Shown here piece by piece: positions 31,671 through 38,327 of a stretch of 61,796 nucleotides of DNA. Positions within the stretch are counted from its first letter, which is position 1; each line of letters begins with the position of its first letter. Position numbers and translations under genes: made by a program. The stretch comes from Clostridia bacterium (GTDB lineage: Bacteria > Bacillota > Clostridia > TANB77 > CAG-465), in contig JAZSNU010000002.1 of assembly GCA_045536565.1 (NCBI GenBank), positions 1 through 61,796 on the forward strand. Reading direction: 5' to 3'. The notes beneath the pieces were generated by a model. The model ran no database searches. It had not been told where the DNA came from and saw nothing but the letters and a program-made list of their open reading frames with translations.

Positions 31671-33848
31671 TTAGTGTAAATCTGTTGTATCAACAAATTT
31701 TACAGTTATAATAGAGCCTTTTTGTACAACATCACCCGGACTAGGATCTTGTATAATTGCATTTCCATTTCCTATTATTCTAATGTTCAGCCCCGCATTT
31801 TTTAATGTTTTTGTTGCTTTAGCAACTGTCATATCTCTAATATCTGGAACAGTAACGGTCAATTTTTCACTATCCAAACTTCTATATACCCTTATGGTTG
31901 AACCAGATACTAGACTTGCACCTACCTTTGGCGTTTGATCAGTTATCAAATCATCTGCTTCAAATTTACTATCTGATGATATTAAGAAGCCAAGTTCTTT
32001 TAATGTCTGTTCAGCCTGTGAATATGTTTTACCAGTTAAATCTGGTACCAATATTTCCTCAATGTTATTTTCTTCTAATGTATAATCTGGATTTACATCT
32101 AAATATCTTAGTGTTTCATCAATGATATTAGATACAACCGGTGCACAAATAGTACCACCTTGGTGACCTTGTGGACCAGTCGGATTATATAGGTTAAGTA
32201 TAATACAAACTTCTGGATCTGTTACTGGTGCTATACCAACAAATGATGCCATATACCAAAGATTGCTTCCCCTTCCTTGCTCACCAGTTCCTGTTTTTCC
32301 TGCTACTGAATAACCTCTAACTTTTGCTGCCTTACCTGTTCCTTCTTCAACAGTCGAATAAAGAGCATCTAAAATACTAGCCGCAGTTTCTTCTGATATT
32401 ACTCTTTTTTTAATTTTTGGCTCTGTCTTAGAAATCAAATTACCATCAGATGATCTAATTTCACTAACAACATATGGTGTTACTATTTCCCCACCATTTG
32501 CCACCGCTGCTGCTGTTACTAAACTTTGCAGTGGTGTTATTTGGAATGTCTGACCAAATCCTGTTGTAGCCAAATCTACCTCCGTCATTGTTTCAGGATT
32601 GTGCAAAATTCCTCCTACCTCTCCTGGAAGATCAATTCCTGTTTTATCTTTTAAATTAAACGCCTCTAAATATTCACAATATTTATCTATTCCAATTTTT
32701 ATTGCACTTTGCATAAATACTGGGTTACATGAATTCATTATACCTTGTCTTAAACTTTGTGAACCATGAGATCTTGGATGTCTCCAACAACGAATAGTCC
32801 ACCCGCCTATTTTCATAGCACCTGAACAATTAAAAGCCCCTGCCTGATCAATTTCTGCTAAGCCTTCTTCAAGCACAGCAGATGATGTTACTATTTTAAA
32901 GGTAGAACCCGGCTCTGCTGTATTTGATATTGCTTTGTTTCTCCATATATCATTAAGAGCAGCTGATTTTTCCTCTGGTGACATAGAGTCCCATTTTGCA
33001 ATTAATTCTTCCGTGTTTGGTTCAAAAGCATTATTAGGATCAAAATCCGGATAAGTTGCCATAGCAAGTATTTCACCTGTTTTTGGTCTCATCATTATTA
33101 TTGCCCCATAATTTGCAACATTTTCCTTTACAGCCTTTGCTAAATTCTTTTCAACTATACTTTGTATTGTTGCATCTACCGTAAGAACTAAATCGTATCC
33201 ATCAATAGGCGCAACATATTGTTCCTCTTTATACGGTGTTTCTCTTCCTTTACCGTCAGCACTTCCAACTATTTTACCAGGAACACCCGAAAGTTCTTCA
33301 TCATATTTTAATTCTAGTCCATATAATCCTTGGCCATCAGTACCTGTAAAGCCTAAAACATGTGATAACAAATTATTGTATTGATATATTCTTTTTGTTG
33401 ATTCATCAACTTTAATTCCATTTATTTCATTATCTAAAACATATTTATATACTTCTGTTGCAGCATCTTCATCTACTTTTGTTTTTATTGTAACTAATGA
33501 AACTTTTTTATTTAATTTTGCAAGTACATCATCTTCTTCAAGTTCTAAAATTTTTGCCAAGTCCTTTGCTACTTGCTCTTTATTCTCTATATCATTTGGA
33601 ACAGCACTAATTGTATTAGTTGATATACTTTGTGCAAGTTTTTTCTCACCTGTGGCATCATATATAGTTCCCCTAGTTGCTGCAACACTTCTATCTCTTG
33701 TCTGCTGTTTATATGCTTTTTCTTCGTAATAGTCCCCTTTTATTATTTGAAGATAAAAAAGTCTACCTACTAAAAAAAGCATCAATATAACAGTAAATAT
33801 TAAAATAACTTTTACCCTTTTTTTGTTTTTTACGCTAGCAAACGCCAA
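31671..33848 (-). CDS. Class B penicillin-binding protein with two PASTA domains (SpoVD/FtsI-like)
   Basis: STFK, SCN, KTG motifs; C-terminal VPDL/VPDI PASTA repeats; dcw position. Confidence 0.9.
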   Translation of the reverse strand: MAFASVKNKKRVKVILIFTVILMLFLVGRLFYLQIIKGDYYEEKAYKQQTRDRSVAATRGTIYDATGEKKLAQSISTNTISAVPNDIENKEQVAKDLAKILELEEDDVLAKLNKKVSLVTIKTKVDEDAATEVYKYVLDNEINGIKVDESTKRIYQYNNLLSHVLGFTGTDGQGLYGLELKYDEELSGVPGKIVGSADGKGRETPYKEEQYVAPIDGYDLVLTVDATIQSIVEKNLAKAVKENVANYGAIIMMRPKTGEILAMATYPDFDPNNAFEPNTEELIAKWDSMSPEEKSAALNDIWRNKAISNTAEPGSTFKIVTSSAVLEEGLAEIDQAGAFNCSGAMKIGGWTIRCWRHPRSHGSQSLRQGIMNSCNPVFMQSAIKIGIDKYCEYLEAFNLKDKTGIDLPGEVGGILHNPETMTEVDLATTGFGQTFQITPLQSLVTAAAVANGGEIVTPYVVSEIRSSDGNLISKTEPKIKKRVISEETAASILDALYSTVEEGTGKAAKVRGYSVAGKTGTGEQGRGSNLWYMASFVGIAPVTDPEVCIILNLYNPTGPQGHQGGTICAPVVSNIIDETLRYLDVNPDYTLEENNIEEILVPDLTGKTYSQAEQTLKELGFLISSDSKFEADDLITDQTPKVGASLVSGSTIRVYRSLDSEKLTVTVPDIRDMTVAKATKTLKNAGLNIRIIGNGNAIIQDPSPGDVVQKGSIITVKFVDTTDLH

Positions 33849-34018
33849 TTAGTTTCACACCCCTTAAATCTTATACATTATATCATATATGCATCAATAT
33901 ATTCTATGTTTTTTTATATATTTTAGAATTTTTTAACGAATTTATTTATATAAAAATCTTATCACAAACCCGAAAAATAAGCAACAATACGATTAAAACA
34001 AAAAGGTAAAAATTGCAT

Positions 34019-34047
34019 TTGACAAAAACAAATTCATATGTTAGTAT
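34019..34047 (+). promoter_or_regulatory. sigma-A promoter for putative antisense sRNA
   Basis: TTGACA-17 bp-TAGTAT with extended TG; oriented against the dcw cluster. Confidence 0.7.
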
Positions 34048-34053
34048 GTATAT

Positions 34054-34165
34054 ATACAACAAAAAAACATAAAATAATAGGGAACATTCAGTTTGGTACA
34101 TTGAATGTCTACCTTAAGATTTTTCTTAAAGGCACTCATTTATGCTTAATGAGTGTCATTTTTTT
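34054..34165 (+). ncRNA. Putative type I antitoxin sRNA (~110 nt)
   Basis: Strong promoter, no SD-led ORF seen, hairpins ACATTCA/TGAATGT and TTAAGA/TCTTAA, ends in terminator GGCACTCATT/AATGAGTGTC + T7. Confidence 0.6.
34131..34165 (+). terminator. Intrinsic terminator overlapping the peptide stop codon
   Basis: GGCACTCATT-tatgctt-AATGAGTGTC-aTTTTTTT. Confidence 0.8.
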
Positions 34166-34248
34166 ATTTCTATTACCAGTACAGCAAGGAGAGATAAAAT
34201 GATACAAATGTATCTTAGAAACTTCAATATAAAGATTCTTTTCTTCAT
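34156..34248 (-). CDS. 30-aa hydrophobic peptide, putative type I toxin (MKKRIFILKFLRYICIILSLLAVLVIEIKK)
   Basis: AAAGGAGG SD at 34259-34266, single TM helix flanked by Lys/Arg, own promoter TTTATA-17-TATAAT (34320-34348). Confidence 0.7.
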   Translation of the reverse strand: MKKRIFILKFLRYICIILSLLAVLVIEIKK

Positions 34249-34459
34249 TTTTATCAAACCTCCTTTCTCTTTCAAGATTAGAGGTAGACACTCTAATAAC
34301 TGATGTTCCCTATGAAAAGATTATACTACTCTATAAGTGTTTTATAAATAACTATAAGTTGTTTTTTATGAAAATTTTATACAAAAAAAAACAAACAGAA
34401 AAGACATCTAATTCTTCTCTGTTTATTCTTTGTAATCTTAAAAATATATTTTTAATTGT

Positions 34460-34921
34460 TTAATTAAATGCTCCCTTTATTTTTTCTACTAAGCTCATTA
34501 TCATGTTACTTGCTGATACTTTTTGTACTGTTTCTTCATTTTCCATATTAATATATATTAACTGACTTTTTTCAGGTTTTTGCATTCCCAATTGTTGTTT
34601 AGCATAAGCTTCAACTTCTGATTCATTCATTATTTCTTCCATTGCTATTTGTGTAGTTGCAAGTTCAGATTTAGCAACAACCAAATCTTGCTTTAATTCT
34701 TGAACATGCAAGTTTTTTTCACTTATTACATTATATCTATATGTTATTACCATAAACATAGTAAATATAATTAAAGTAGTTAAAACTAATGTAGCCCTAT
34801 TACTTTTTGATATTGTATTTTTATTTGTATTCTTTATTAATCTGAACTTATCTTCTGATTTGTTTATTGTTTTCTTTTCAGGCAAGCTTAAATCATAAAG
34901 ATACTTCTTCTCTGCTACCAT
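34460..34921 (-). CDS. ftsL: Cell division protein FtsL
   Basis: TM + coiled coil + VEAYAKQQLGM; follows rsmH. Confidence 0.85.
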   Translation of the reverse strand: MVAEKKYLYDLSLPEKKTINKSEDKFRLIKNTNKNTISKSNRATLVLTTLIIFTMFMVITYRYNVISEKNLHVQELKQDLVVAKSELATTQIAMEEIMNESEVEAYAKQQLGMQKPEKSQLIYINMENEETVQKVSASNMIMSLVEKIKGAFN

Positions 34922-36645: not shown

Positions 36646-37341
36646 TTAATCAACTTTTAGTTCTAATAACTTTTGATCCCTAAATCCTAATACCCTTCCT
36701 ATTATATTATTTGGGAATTTATTTAGCAATATATTATATTCAGTTACATCTATATTATATGTTCTTCTAGCCGCTTGTAATTTACTTTCTTCTTTTACTA
36801 ATTGTTCTTGTAAATTCAAGAAACTCTCACACACTTTTAATTCAGGATAATTTTCTAATGTAAATATTATATTATCATATTCTTTATTTAAAAATTCTTT
36901 TTCAATTATGGCATTACTATTAATATATTTCTCTCTAATCTTAATCATTTGTTCTAATACTTTTTGCTGGTAGTTGCAATTTTCTTTAACTACTGTAACT
37001 AAATTTGGTATTAAATCAAATCTATGTTTTAAAAATATATCTATATTAGCAAAATCTTTTTGTATTTCTTTATTTTTAGATGCTAATTTATTATATAGTT
37101 TTATAACATAATAACATAATAATACACTCAAACCAATTATAGTTGACCAAACAGAAAATCCACATTCTTCCCAAAATTTATCTTTCAACATTTTATTTGA
37201 AAACTCAGAAGAAATAGAAAGTATTGGTTCAGTTCGTTCTTTAAATTCTACATAGCTGCTATATCCAGAAAAGAAATTAACTAAAACAATAATTGCAAAC
37301 AATAATATAAAAATCCCCTTAGGAGCTAATATTTTATTCAT
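36646..37341 (-). CDS. lemA: LemA family protein with extra N-terminal TM segment
   Basis: RFDLIPNLV, ENYPELK, RRTYN, FPNNII. Confidence 0.85.
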   Translation of the reverse strand: MNKILAPKGIFILLFAIIVLVNFFSGYSSYVEFKERTEPILSISSEFSNKMLKDKFWEECGFSVWSTIIGLSVLLCYYVIKLYNKLASKNKEIQKDFANIDIFLKHRFDLIPNLVTVVKENCNYQQKVLEQMIKIREKYINSNAIIEKEFLNKEYDNIIFTLENYPELKVCESFLNLQEQLVKEESKLQAARRTYNIDVTEYNILLNKFPNNIIGRVLGFRDQKLLELKVD

Positions 37342-37352
37342 ATACTTTCCTC

Positions 37353-38327
37353 CTATATAACCAATTCTGATATAGTGTTAAAAAGCTCGCTAATCATATT
37401 TTTTATATTAATTACTTTCGTTATGTCATCATACATATCGTTTTGAAAATCTTCGTATTTTCTAATTTCAAATATGGTATAATCGTATAATCTAATATAC
37501 ATAGTATTATTACTTAGCACTAAATCATATTTTAAATTATATTTTTCTCTAATCTCAATTAATTTCAACATCACATCATGAGTAAGAATTTGCAACGCTT
37601 TAATTTCATCGTTAGAAGTAACTTCAAAATACTTTTCAAACTCGTCCATATCTACTGATATTTTATTTTTATCACCTTTTAAAGAAGATATTTCAACTTT
37701 TGCATTTATGTTTATTGGCAAATTTAGTTTTCCCACTAAGCCAATAAACTTAGTAGAATAATATGTATTGCCTTCATCATCTCTTTCTTCTGTTTCAGTT
37801 AATACATTTGAAGCCTCAAATAATGTATTATTACCCATACCGAATCTTATATAATCATTAGAATAGAATCTATCATATCTTTCATTTAGGCTTGCCTGTA
37901 TAAAAGTATATACATCTATACCTTTTGTATGTTCATATTCAAAATTAGTTAGTGTATTTTCAAAAACAGGATATATAATTTGTTTTGTTATAATTGGATA
38001 TAATACTTCTTCATAATGTAATCTTTTTTTGTTTCGTTTATTAGATTTTATTATCATCCATATTGGTAATATTATAATCAATATCAATATTATATTTGTG
38101 ATAAGTTTAACCAACGATACTTTATCATATAAGAGCACAACAATGGCTGCTGCTGGATAAATCACTAATGGACTAAACAATGTAAATAACACCATAAACA
38201 CTAACAACTTTTTCTTTGCCTTCTTAGGCTTAATATTTATTCTTTTGTACTCATCAAATATATTTTTAATATTTATATAATTCTGACTCATAATTTCAAT
38301 ATATTTTTGTTTTATTTCAACACTCAT
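37353..38327 (-). CDS. DUF3137-like membrane protein
   Basis: Two TMs, FEKYFEVTSNDEIKALQILT motif, adjacent to lemA. Confidence 0.7.
   Translation of the reverse strand: MSVEIKQKYIEIMSQNYINIKNIFDEYKRINIKPKKAKKKLLVFMVLFTLFSPLVIYPAAAIVVLLYDKVSLVKLITNIILILIIILPIWMIIKSNKRNKKRLHYEEVLYPIITKQIIYPVFENTLTNFEYEHTKGIDVYTFIQASLNERYDRFYSNDYIRFGMGNNTLFEASNVLTETEERDDEGNTYYSTKFIGLVGKLNLPININAKVEISSLKGDKNKISVDMDEFEKYFEVTSNDEIKALQILTHDVMLKLIEIREKYNLKYDLVLSNNTMYIRLYDYTIFEIRKYEDFQNDMYDDITKVINIKNMISELFNTISELVI

Follow-up and report, generated by a model that had tools for sequence, protein, structure and literature searches.

The window, by which we mean the whole stretch of 61,796 nucleotides that was analysed, carries on its minus strand an ftsL/divIC-like gene (34460..34921; PF04999, E 2.7e-4, just below its cut-off) and a gene for a class B penicillin-binding protein (PBP) with PASTA domains (31671..33848; PF03717, PF00905 and PF03793). 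The gap between them is 611 bp long and houses two promoters, a 30-aa ORF and an antisense terminator. The peptide mRNA promoter, located by promoter scan on the minus strand (34320..34348), consists of a -35 box TTTATA (34348-34343), a 17-nt spacer and a -10 box TATAAT (34325-34320). The predicted toxin mRNA is about 245 nt long (34066..34313, minus strand), its ends being inferred from the promoter and from a terminator called T2. From its 5' end, this mRNA contains a leader segment forming long-range helix 1 with the 3' arm of T2 (34300..34311; three pairs changed on both sides), a leader core AGAGUGUC (34287..34294) that is complementary, on the mRNA strand, to the 5' arms of both the antisense terminator T1 and T2, and an anti-SD sequence UACCUCU (34280..34286), predicted to bind the Shine-Dalgarno (SD) sequence while the mRNA is nascent and the 3' UTR once it is full-length. 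The SD sequence AAAGGAGG (34259..34266) lies 10 nt ahead of the ATG of the ORF (34156..34248), which encodes a basic-hydrophobic-basic peptide reading MKKRIFILKFLRYICIILSLLAVLVIEIKK, the likely toxin. T2, the predicted mRNA terminator (34066..34114, minus strand), has arms at 34114-34102 and 34091-34079 followed by a U-rich tail, and both of its arms additionally pair with the mRNA leader. On the plus strand, the promoter TTGACA-17-TG-n-TAGTAT (34019..34047; promoter scan) precedes a predicted antisense RNA of about 112 nt, the putative antitoxin (34054..34165), composed of a variable-loop hairpin, a variable middle part and T1. T1 (34131..34165, plus strand; stem 34131-34157 and a T run) overlaps the stop codon, and the antisense RNA overlaps the end of the ORF by about 10 nt (34156-34165). 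The layout of two convergent transcription units proposed in the preliminary description, with its ORF, SD sequence, both promoters and plus-strand terminator, was thus recovered in full. Elsewhere in the window, a LemA-like ORF and an adjoining membrane-protein ORF (36646-38327, minus strand; names given by eye) were seen upstream of an mraZ-like gene.

The promoter scan returned seven promoter-like sites, a number at chance level (8.8 ± 3.4 in shuffled sequences); the two promoters described above were the best two of the seven, each scoring 10/12. Terminators were above chance (two, against 0.2 ± 0.5 in shuffles). For comparison among homologues, 131 of 233 distinct modules passed the motif filters and were clustered at 90%, which gave 68 representatives. 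The TT of the -35 box and the core -10 bases of the peptide mRNA promoter were invariant in 17 aligned copies, and the 75 nt preceding the antisense hairpin contained the motif TTG-17-TAnnnT in 62 of the 68 homologues, compared with 6% of shuffled controls. It is because of this conservation that the promoters are credible beyond chance. The fold of the antisense RNA had a z-score of -4.5, and covariance model R1, whose training set includes this copy itself, scored 34059-34165 at 96.7 bits. A conserved TTGCATAAAAT motif was also seen in the 5' part of the antisense RNA (alignment A5, columns 8-20), outside the predicted overlap with the mRNA.

The direction of the terminators was examined through their U-tracts, which formed no part of homologue selection. 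T1 was followed by a U-tract on the antisense strand in all 61 scorable homologues (seven of the 68 were not scorable), and on the mRNA strand in only one, so that T1 as a bidirectional terminator was rejected. A second U-tailed hairpin, T2, was present on the mRNA strand in 60 of the 61. This pattern suggests that the mRNA reads through T1 and ends at T2. The antisense terminator that the preliminary description had placed over the stop codon is present there, but it is one-way and the mRNA has a predicted terminator of its own; consequently, the two RNAs are predicted to overlap by about 95-100 nt instead of a few bases, and with an mRNA ending at T2 the antisense RNA is predicted to cover the whole 3' UTR.

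The 30-aa ORF is under purifying selection, with a median dN/dS of 0.33 over 2031 pairs among the 68 representatives and the greatest variability at third codon positions; the spacing of the SD sequence was fixed among homologues. The peptides of the representatives had a mean net charge of +5.7 and a best 15-residue hydropathy of 3.26. Glycine was wholly absent from them, and the P-x-x-x-G motif of Fst, which the first reading of the window had already noted as lacking in its peptide, was found in 0 of 68. AlphaFold2 predicted a single helix over residues 3-29 (pLDDT 91), which is weakly informative for so short a chain. With a pattern built from non-coding motifs only, an ORF of 30 aa was present in 191 of the 233 distinct modules, a set that includes seed loci found with ORF-containing queries, and no ORF was present in 11. 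Other peptides were carried on the same RNA scaffold among weaker matches to the RNA model, namely peptides of 26-27 aa (xKKDFL...), 29 aa (KKKDLLISFL...CIKK) and 35-37 aa, and the lengths that share this one scaffold range from 24 to 37 aa. An intact module of the short type was also present in the window's own family. In L035, L016, L081, L097 and L228 the stop codon was lost and the ORF entered T1, giving extended peptides of 34-41 aa; several longer database proteins with similar tails appear to be read-through forms.

The peptide had been taken as unrecognised and possibly the founder of a new family, and the database searches agreed with this. Pfam searches with 2, 16, 48 and 45 peptides gave no significant match (best E about 0.02), nor did searches of the peptides against NCBIfam (best E 0.015) and PHROGs (best E 0.041); against PDB sequences, one match at E 3.2 was obtained, and none in a second search. 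The ESM Atlas gave no usable match, which bears on neither absence nor novelty. The Hol_Tox profile (PF16935), which we take to cover the BsrE/BsrG/TxpA/SprG group, matched neither copy in a search of the genome at E<=10 and was absent from the Pfam matches of 16, 48 and 45 members. Fst_toxin (PF13955) gave no match, a profile that also passed its cut-off in 0 of 14 control genomes. Rfam returned nine chance matches on the window at E<=10, far under gathering scores, and on 13 loci at gathering it returned only glmS and a tRNA, both in the flanks; no Rfam antitoxin family was among the matches for the window or the 13 loci. Among protein representatives, 74 matches were found at E<=0.001, and all 20 that were inspected belonged to the same peptide family.

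A second intact copy was found downstream of recO in the window's genome (G000:C2:104240-104515; L002:1476-1820). It was 80% identical to the window copy, and the differences clustered in the antisense-RNA loops. Across 401 genomes of the order, a search with the peptide profile identified 19 copies, distributed over 10 genomes; one extra weak profile match inside a long ORF was discarded. The DNA pattern of non-coding motifs matched at least 120 stretches in GTDB genomes and at least 121 in metagenomes. Among the 80 GTDB matches listed, 56 were titled Bacilli, six Tenericutes and three Clostridia, and out-of-place titles (Muribaculaceae, for example) may stem from mislabelling or misbinning. 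With the antisense-RNA covariance model, matches were obtained in 15 of the 79 genomes from the window's family and in 55 of the 101 from a Bacilli family, where a single genome had as many as 12; among 150 other genomes sampled across the phylum there were none. The host lineages are presumably TANB77-like and RF39-like. Up to six copies per genome were present in the window's own family and up to 12 in the Bacilli family; presence within the window's genus was patchy (one of five genomes). Tandem arrays of two to three modules, some with mixed peptide subfamilies, were seen in L129, L143, L104, L038, L395, L423 and L448; the ldr and ibs loci of E. coli, which are likewise repeated in tandem (PMC2887945), are comparable.

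A midpoint-rooted tree was built from 45 modules, comprising 14 from the window's own order and 31 named GTDB records, with metagenome rows excluded; the choice of root means that no direction of transfer is claimed. The own-order copies needed at least three changes on this tree and shared a well-supported branch (100/98) with five Bacilli or Tenericutes copies. The two own-order outliers come from short contigs and could be binning errors. The two copies in the window's genome were not sisters, and recent duplication there was rejected. Exchange of the module between two bacterial classes would be compatible with this tree. As to carriers, the module had no match in the plasmid collection; the one 49-nt match in the phage collection was rejected as chance; and no match among viral contigs was confirmed by the peptide, the DNA pattern matching two of them, one of which (L196) holds an unrelated acidic ORF. 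The module behaves as a scattered, self-maintaining element that is free of context.

The pairing within the mRNA was analysed by folding and by comparison. The minus-strand sequence 34060-34314 folded into one long 5'-3' helix of -72 kcal/mol (z -7.3), and 0 of 200 shuffles were as stable. Two segments of the mRNA leader are complementary to sequence within the antisense gene. In an alignment of 65 mRNAs, the named structure was paired in 98.6% of cells, compared with 39-46% for slid controls, and the CCUC of the anti-SD, which never varied, formed pairs with GGAGG in 99.7% of cells; the leader and 3' motif filter by which 131 of the 233 modules were retained favours this result. Changes on both sides of a pair occurred in 51 cells, against 19.4 ± 4.0 in shuffles, but they were confined to three of 26 pairs, a pair count reached by 145 of 500 shuffles, and most pairs were invariant.

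A strand test on 119 modules of three subfamilies, read on the mRNA strand, gave G-U and A-C counts of 130 and 17 for the leader with the T2 5' arm and of 63 and 11 for the leader with the T1 5' arm, whereas the T1 hairpin gave 16 and 82; the homologues are related, so these counts are not independent events. The G-U excess fits leader pairings formed on the mRNA strand, and the A-C excess a T1 hairpin formed on the antisense strand. Between subfamilies, changes in the leader core were accompanied by changes in the T1 arm (GAGUGUC/GACACUC, UUGAGUACU/AGUACUCAA and UUGGGUGAU/AUCACCUAA). An alternative pairing between the T1 3' arm and the T2 5' arm gave 63 G-U and 25 A-C, and is another way to read the covariation of T1 with the leader. 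Some Bacilli copies showed, by eye, a possible pseudoknot joining the first loop of the antisense RNA to its 5' part; other copies lacked it, and the idea was rejected.

The cost of opening the SD sequence was computed at equilibrium, with no kinetics, for the 68 representatives. The mean cost was 8.25 kcal/mol for the mRNA before the stop codon, 9.85 kcal/mol when the T1 arm had just been made and 5.36 kcal/mol at full length. It rose on making the T1 arm in 57 of the 68, and was lower at full length than in the nascent mRNA in 62; the window's own series was 6.5, 8.1-8.3 and 5.0. In all 34 representatives tested (every second one), the native 3' UTR gave a lower cost than shuffled 3' UTRs. 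When the 3' part was blocked, as a mimic of the antisense RNA, the cost returned to 8.25 kcal/mol, although the bound state resembles the nascent one almost by construction, the 3' part simply being forced unpaired. In the full-length mRNA the anti-SD still lay on the SD sequence with a mean probability of 0.61, compared with 0.38 on the 3' UTR, so that the predicted opening is partial; the RNAalifold consensus retained the SD helix. Activation by 3' trimming, as in aapA or hok, was rejected on the model, because the computed costs were 5.27 and 5.20. Duplex energies for non-cognate pairs were about -99 and -105 kcal/mol, compared with -161 kcal/mol for the cognate pair; since the non-cognate duplexes are still stable, cross-protection is plausible. 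A gene for RNase III is present in the genome.

The two genes of the module were not lost equally. In the window's family, 18 of 26 antisense matches had an adjacent ORF, seven had none (three of these at one site and therefore not independent) and one was split inside T1 by an insertion sequence (IS). At each of two chromosomal sites, a full module in some genomes was matched by the antisense part only in others (L014 against L339-L342; L036 and L040 against L352). In the Bacilli family, 96 antisense matches were taken in regions chosen from the matches listed; four contig-end cases and one opposite-strand artefact were dropped, and 18 of the 91 evaluable matches, judged by eye, had a deleted, truncated or start-less peptide gene. 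One of the 91 was ambiguous, and six peptide genes missed by the script were found intact. In contrast, 54 of 56 peptide matches retained the antisense gene, 49 by a listed match and five more on inspection. In one of the 56, T1 had gone along with the toxin leader; in another (L469:1387-1600), leader and ORF were kept, but the antisense gene had its 5' half replaced by a tRNA-like gene. Loss of the peptide gene ahead of its antisense partner is as would be expected for a toxin, and this one-sided decay supports the type I toxin-antitoxin (TA) reading that the layout had first suggested, although reuse of T1 as a terminator for host genes could partly add to it.

Several of these loci showed further features. 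Modules were seen directly behind tRNA-like genes at L469:1387-1600 and L344:1400-1760. At L041:1827-3622 (G070:C35), an IS with HTH and rve integrase ORFs lies in T1; it cuts the 5' part of the antisense gene off from the peptide gene and also deprives the latter of its 3' pairing segment. The orphan antisense genes at L338, L339 and L340 have kept their promoter and lie just upstream of host genes (by eye, a release-factor-like ORF and a pilin-like ORF), for which they could now serve as promoter or attenuator.

The locus was also compared with known type I systems as described in the sources cited. Against the general size ranges for such systems, a hydrophobic ORF of 20-60 aa and an mRNA of 150-400 nt (PMC8594479), the peptide here has 30 aa and the mRNA a predicted length of about 245 nt; a separate complementary antisense RNA within 60-200 nt is present at the level of sequence, and an SD sequence sequestered by an anti-SD was obtained by computation. 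The predicted mechanism parallels that of bsrG/SR4, whose control logic was shown by experiment: the antitoxin opens a 5'-3' helix, P1 (nt 1-35 with 232-262), whereupon the SD stem lengthens from 4 to 8 bp (PMC3834814, Jahn and Brantl 2013). As in that system, a convergent antitoxin lies over the 3' part of the mRNA; a long 5'-3' helix, lengthening of a local SD stem on release of the 5' end and decay through RNase III are predicted here (PMC3834814). However, bsrG has a separate terminator hairpin after P1, whereas in the present module the arms of the terminator also serve as the 3' partners of the leader; SR4 has a length of 180 nt, compared with about 112 nt for the antisense RNA here; and BsrG has 38 aa with a charged C-terminus, compared with 30 aa, a basic N-terminal third and a KK end.

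The descriptors for bsrE/SR5 and bsrH/as-bsrH (PMC8594479 Table S1) likewise agree in an mRNA of 200-300 nt, a peptide of 25-35 aa, a P1 stem, an anti-SD upstream of the SD sequence and an antisense gene 3' of the ORF with an overlap of 3-30 nt. They differ in an antisense RNA of 128-192 nt (160-200 nt ± 20%), which is longer than the approximately 112 nt here, and in a loop between SD and anti-SD of 3-10 nt, compared with 15 nt here (PMC8594479). The bsrE/bsrG/bsrH group has an SL5 hairpin after P1, whereas the module has no separate SL5; and SR5 is reported to leave the SD structure of bsrE unchanged (PMC6562991), whereas a change is predicted here. The module was set apart from BsrE/BsrG by profiles, Rfam and descriptors. 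With Fst/RNAII (par) and SprA1/SprA1AS it shares convergent genes, a membrane peptide of about 30 aa, a leader stem that holds the SD sequence and scattered chromosomal copies (PMC8167048, PMC8309996). However, the APxxxG motif of Fst/SprA1 occurred in 0 of 68 peptides here; Fst/SprA1 have a shared bidirectional terminator and an antitoxin of 60-65 nt, compared with a one-way T1 and 112 nt; and the direct repeats of Fst are read by both RNAs, whereas here the repeats are inverted on the DNA and give intramolecular 5'-3' pairing. With aapA/IsoA of Helicobacter pylori the module shares a 30-aa peptide, multiple copies and sequential metastable folds followed by a stable 5'-3' interaction, but IsoA lies over the 5' UTR and the start of the ORF, whereas the antisense gene here is 3' of the ORF, and the aapA 5'-3' interaction silences until 3' trimming, whereas here it is predicted to loosen the SD sequence (PMC6733600). 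Judged against these sources, the module is not Fst, SprA1 or AapA (PMC8167048, PMC8309996, PMC6562991, PMC6563280, PMC6733600, PMC2887945). The comparison with type I families that had been suggested for this locus thus ended with no Hol_Tox, Fst_toxin or Rfam antitoxin match.

Taken from sequence, the locus is quite probably a chromosomal type I TA module of an undescribed family, consisting of a likely toxic 30-residue peptide, predicted to form one helix, and an antisense RNA of about 112 nt predicted to silence it. Its RNA design is likely a variant of the bsrG/bsrE type, with a new peptide family that is abundant in uncultured gut lineages. Its place in the division gene (dcw) cluster, between ftsL-like and class B PBP genes on the same strand, had been thought unusual, and a small membrane peptide regulating division had been considered as an alternative; acting with FtsL and the PBP, such a peptide would make the site functional. 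Because envelope synthesis or division is disturbed by Fst and BsrG (PMC8309996, PMC8167048), overproduction of the peptide could also give a division phenotype. However, the module was absent from the ftsL-PBP gap in all nine relatives whose locus included both flanking genes (a tenth, without the PBP side, was left out of the count), and the paralogue adjoins recO. This gap measured 90-114 bp in genus g6 and 190, 240, 318 and 780 bp in the window's genus, where it has features of its own: the terminator-like hairpin behind the ftsL-like gene, a host feature upstream of the module (34386..34431, minus strand; terminator scan), has a counterpart with a T-run at the same place in same-genus relatives (judged by eye), and the extended -10 (TG-n-TATAAT) before the PBP gene (33877..33885, minus strand; read from the sequence and missed by the promoter scan) was present in all four same-genus relatives having both genes on the locus. 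The operon was therefore likely divided before the module came, and the module likely landed between the ftsL terminator and the PBP promoter. In one same-genus genome, an unrelated hydrophobic-looking ORF lies inside the gap (L319, G054, about 1957-2733), which suggests an insertion hot spot behind the ftsL terminator. The division reading is thus largely refuted and retains hardly any probability; the dcw site is likely incidental, a chance of insertion, and nothing here indicates a bearing of the module on cell division.

A non-toxic regulatory membrane peptide, acting as an adaptor or inhibitor in the manner of MgtR under antisense control, is a better-founded alternative that we nevertheless consider improbable. 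A single helix, constant length and purifying selection would suit any functional membrane peptide, the NCBIfam profile small_MgtR gave a non-significant match in one of 16 members (E 0.088), and the tolerance of up to six copies (own family) or 12 (Bacilli) would be easily understood. However, no target gene is linked to the module: across the 68 representatives, many of them on loci too short to show a neighbour, 86 neighbouring ORFs fell into 74 families of at most two members each. The patchiness among close kin and the use of one RNA scaffold for peptides of 24-37 aa also speak against it, and the layered block on translation and the peptide-first loss fit a harmful product. Scattered intergenic copies, inverted complementarity between the ends, and ORF-less copies, some directly downstream of host genes, would also be expected of a structured non-coding repeat, such as a miniature mobile element or portable terminator, with an incidental ORF and no RNA-RNA control. 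This is very unlikely, because the dN/dS value, the fixed SD spacing and the variable third positions mark a coding sequence, two conserved promoters face each other, and the G-U asymmetry favours RNA pairing on one strand over an inverted repeat in DNA.

For the type I TA module, the following course of events may be proposed. It would start from two conserved promoters, one U-tailed terminator per strand, and the conserved SD/anti-SD and 5'-3' complementarity read in the sequence. According to the folding predictions, the SD sequence of the nascent mRNA would be closed by the local anti-SD; the leader core would then pair with the emerging first arm of T1, tightening the block; and after termination at T2 both T2 arms would refold on the leader, compete for the anti-SD and loosen the SD sequence. 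By analogy with bsrG/SR4, the antisense RNA would strip the 3' end of the mRNA from the leader so that the SD hairpin re-forms, and RNase III would cleave the mRNA/antisense duplex. At a shortage of antisense RNA the peptide would be made and would damage the membrane or envelope synthesis, membrane damage being suggested by known type I toxins.

A wider reading, which we put forward tentatively and with some doubt, is that the module represents a portable chassis, made of RNA, that carries toxins and has its own timer. The leader core of 8-9 nt would be handed from the arm of the antitoxin terminator to that of the mRNA terminator, so that the message is locked during synthesis and switched on, without processing, only once the terminator refolds onto the 5' end. 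The cargo (24-37 aa) would be swapped on this chassis, which would pass between Clostridia and Bacilli without an evident carrier and reach a dozen copies in 1-Mb genomes, and orphan antitoxins may immunise the host against incoming copies.

Type I TA systems have usually been discovered in cultured bacteria, through the similarity of their peptides. In its kind and basic control logic the present system follows what is already known from bsrG/SR4; what is added here is a large family, missed by standard protein and RNA libraries, from streamlined, uncultured lineages of the gut. The literature covered, which left T1TAdb itself, tables S7-S8 of Fozo 2010 and most subscription papers outside, held no description of such a family in these lineages, and T1TAdb or those tables could hold a member of it. 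Fozo et al. (2010) suggested that type I loci do not spread horizontally (PMC2887945); the exchange between two classes with which the module tree is compatible would contrast with this. The hundreds of diverged copies are rich comparative data for a staged folding of the mRNA in which a terminator may double as activator, and they make the life cycle of a chromosomal type I system visible, from insertion at unrelated sites through tandem copies and change of the peptide to loss of the toxin first.
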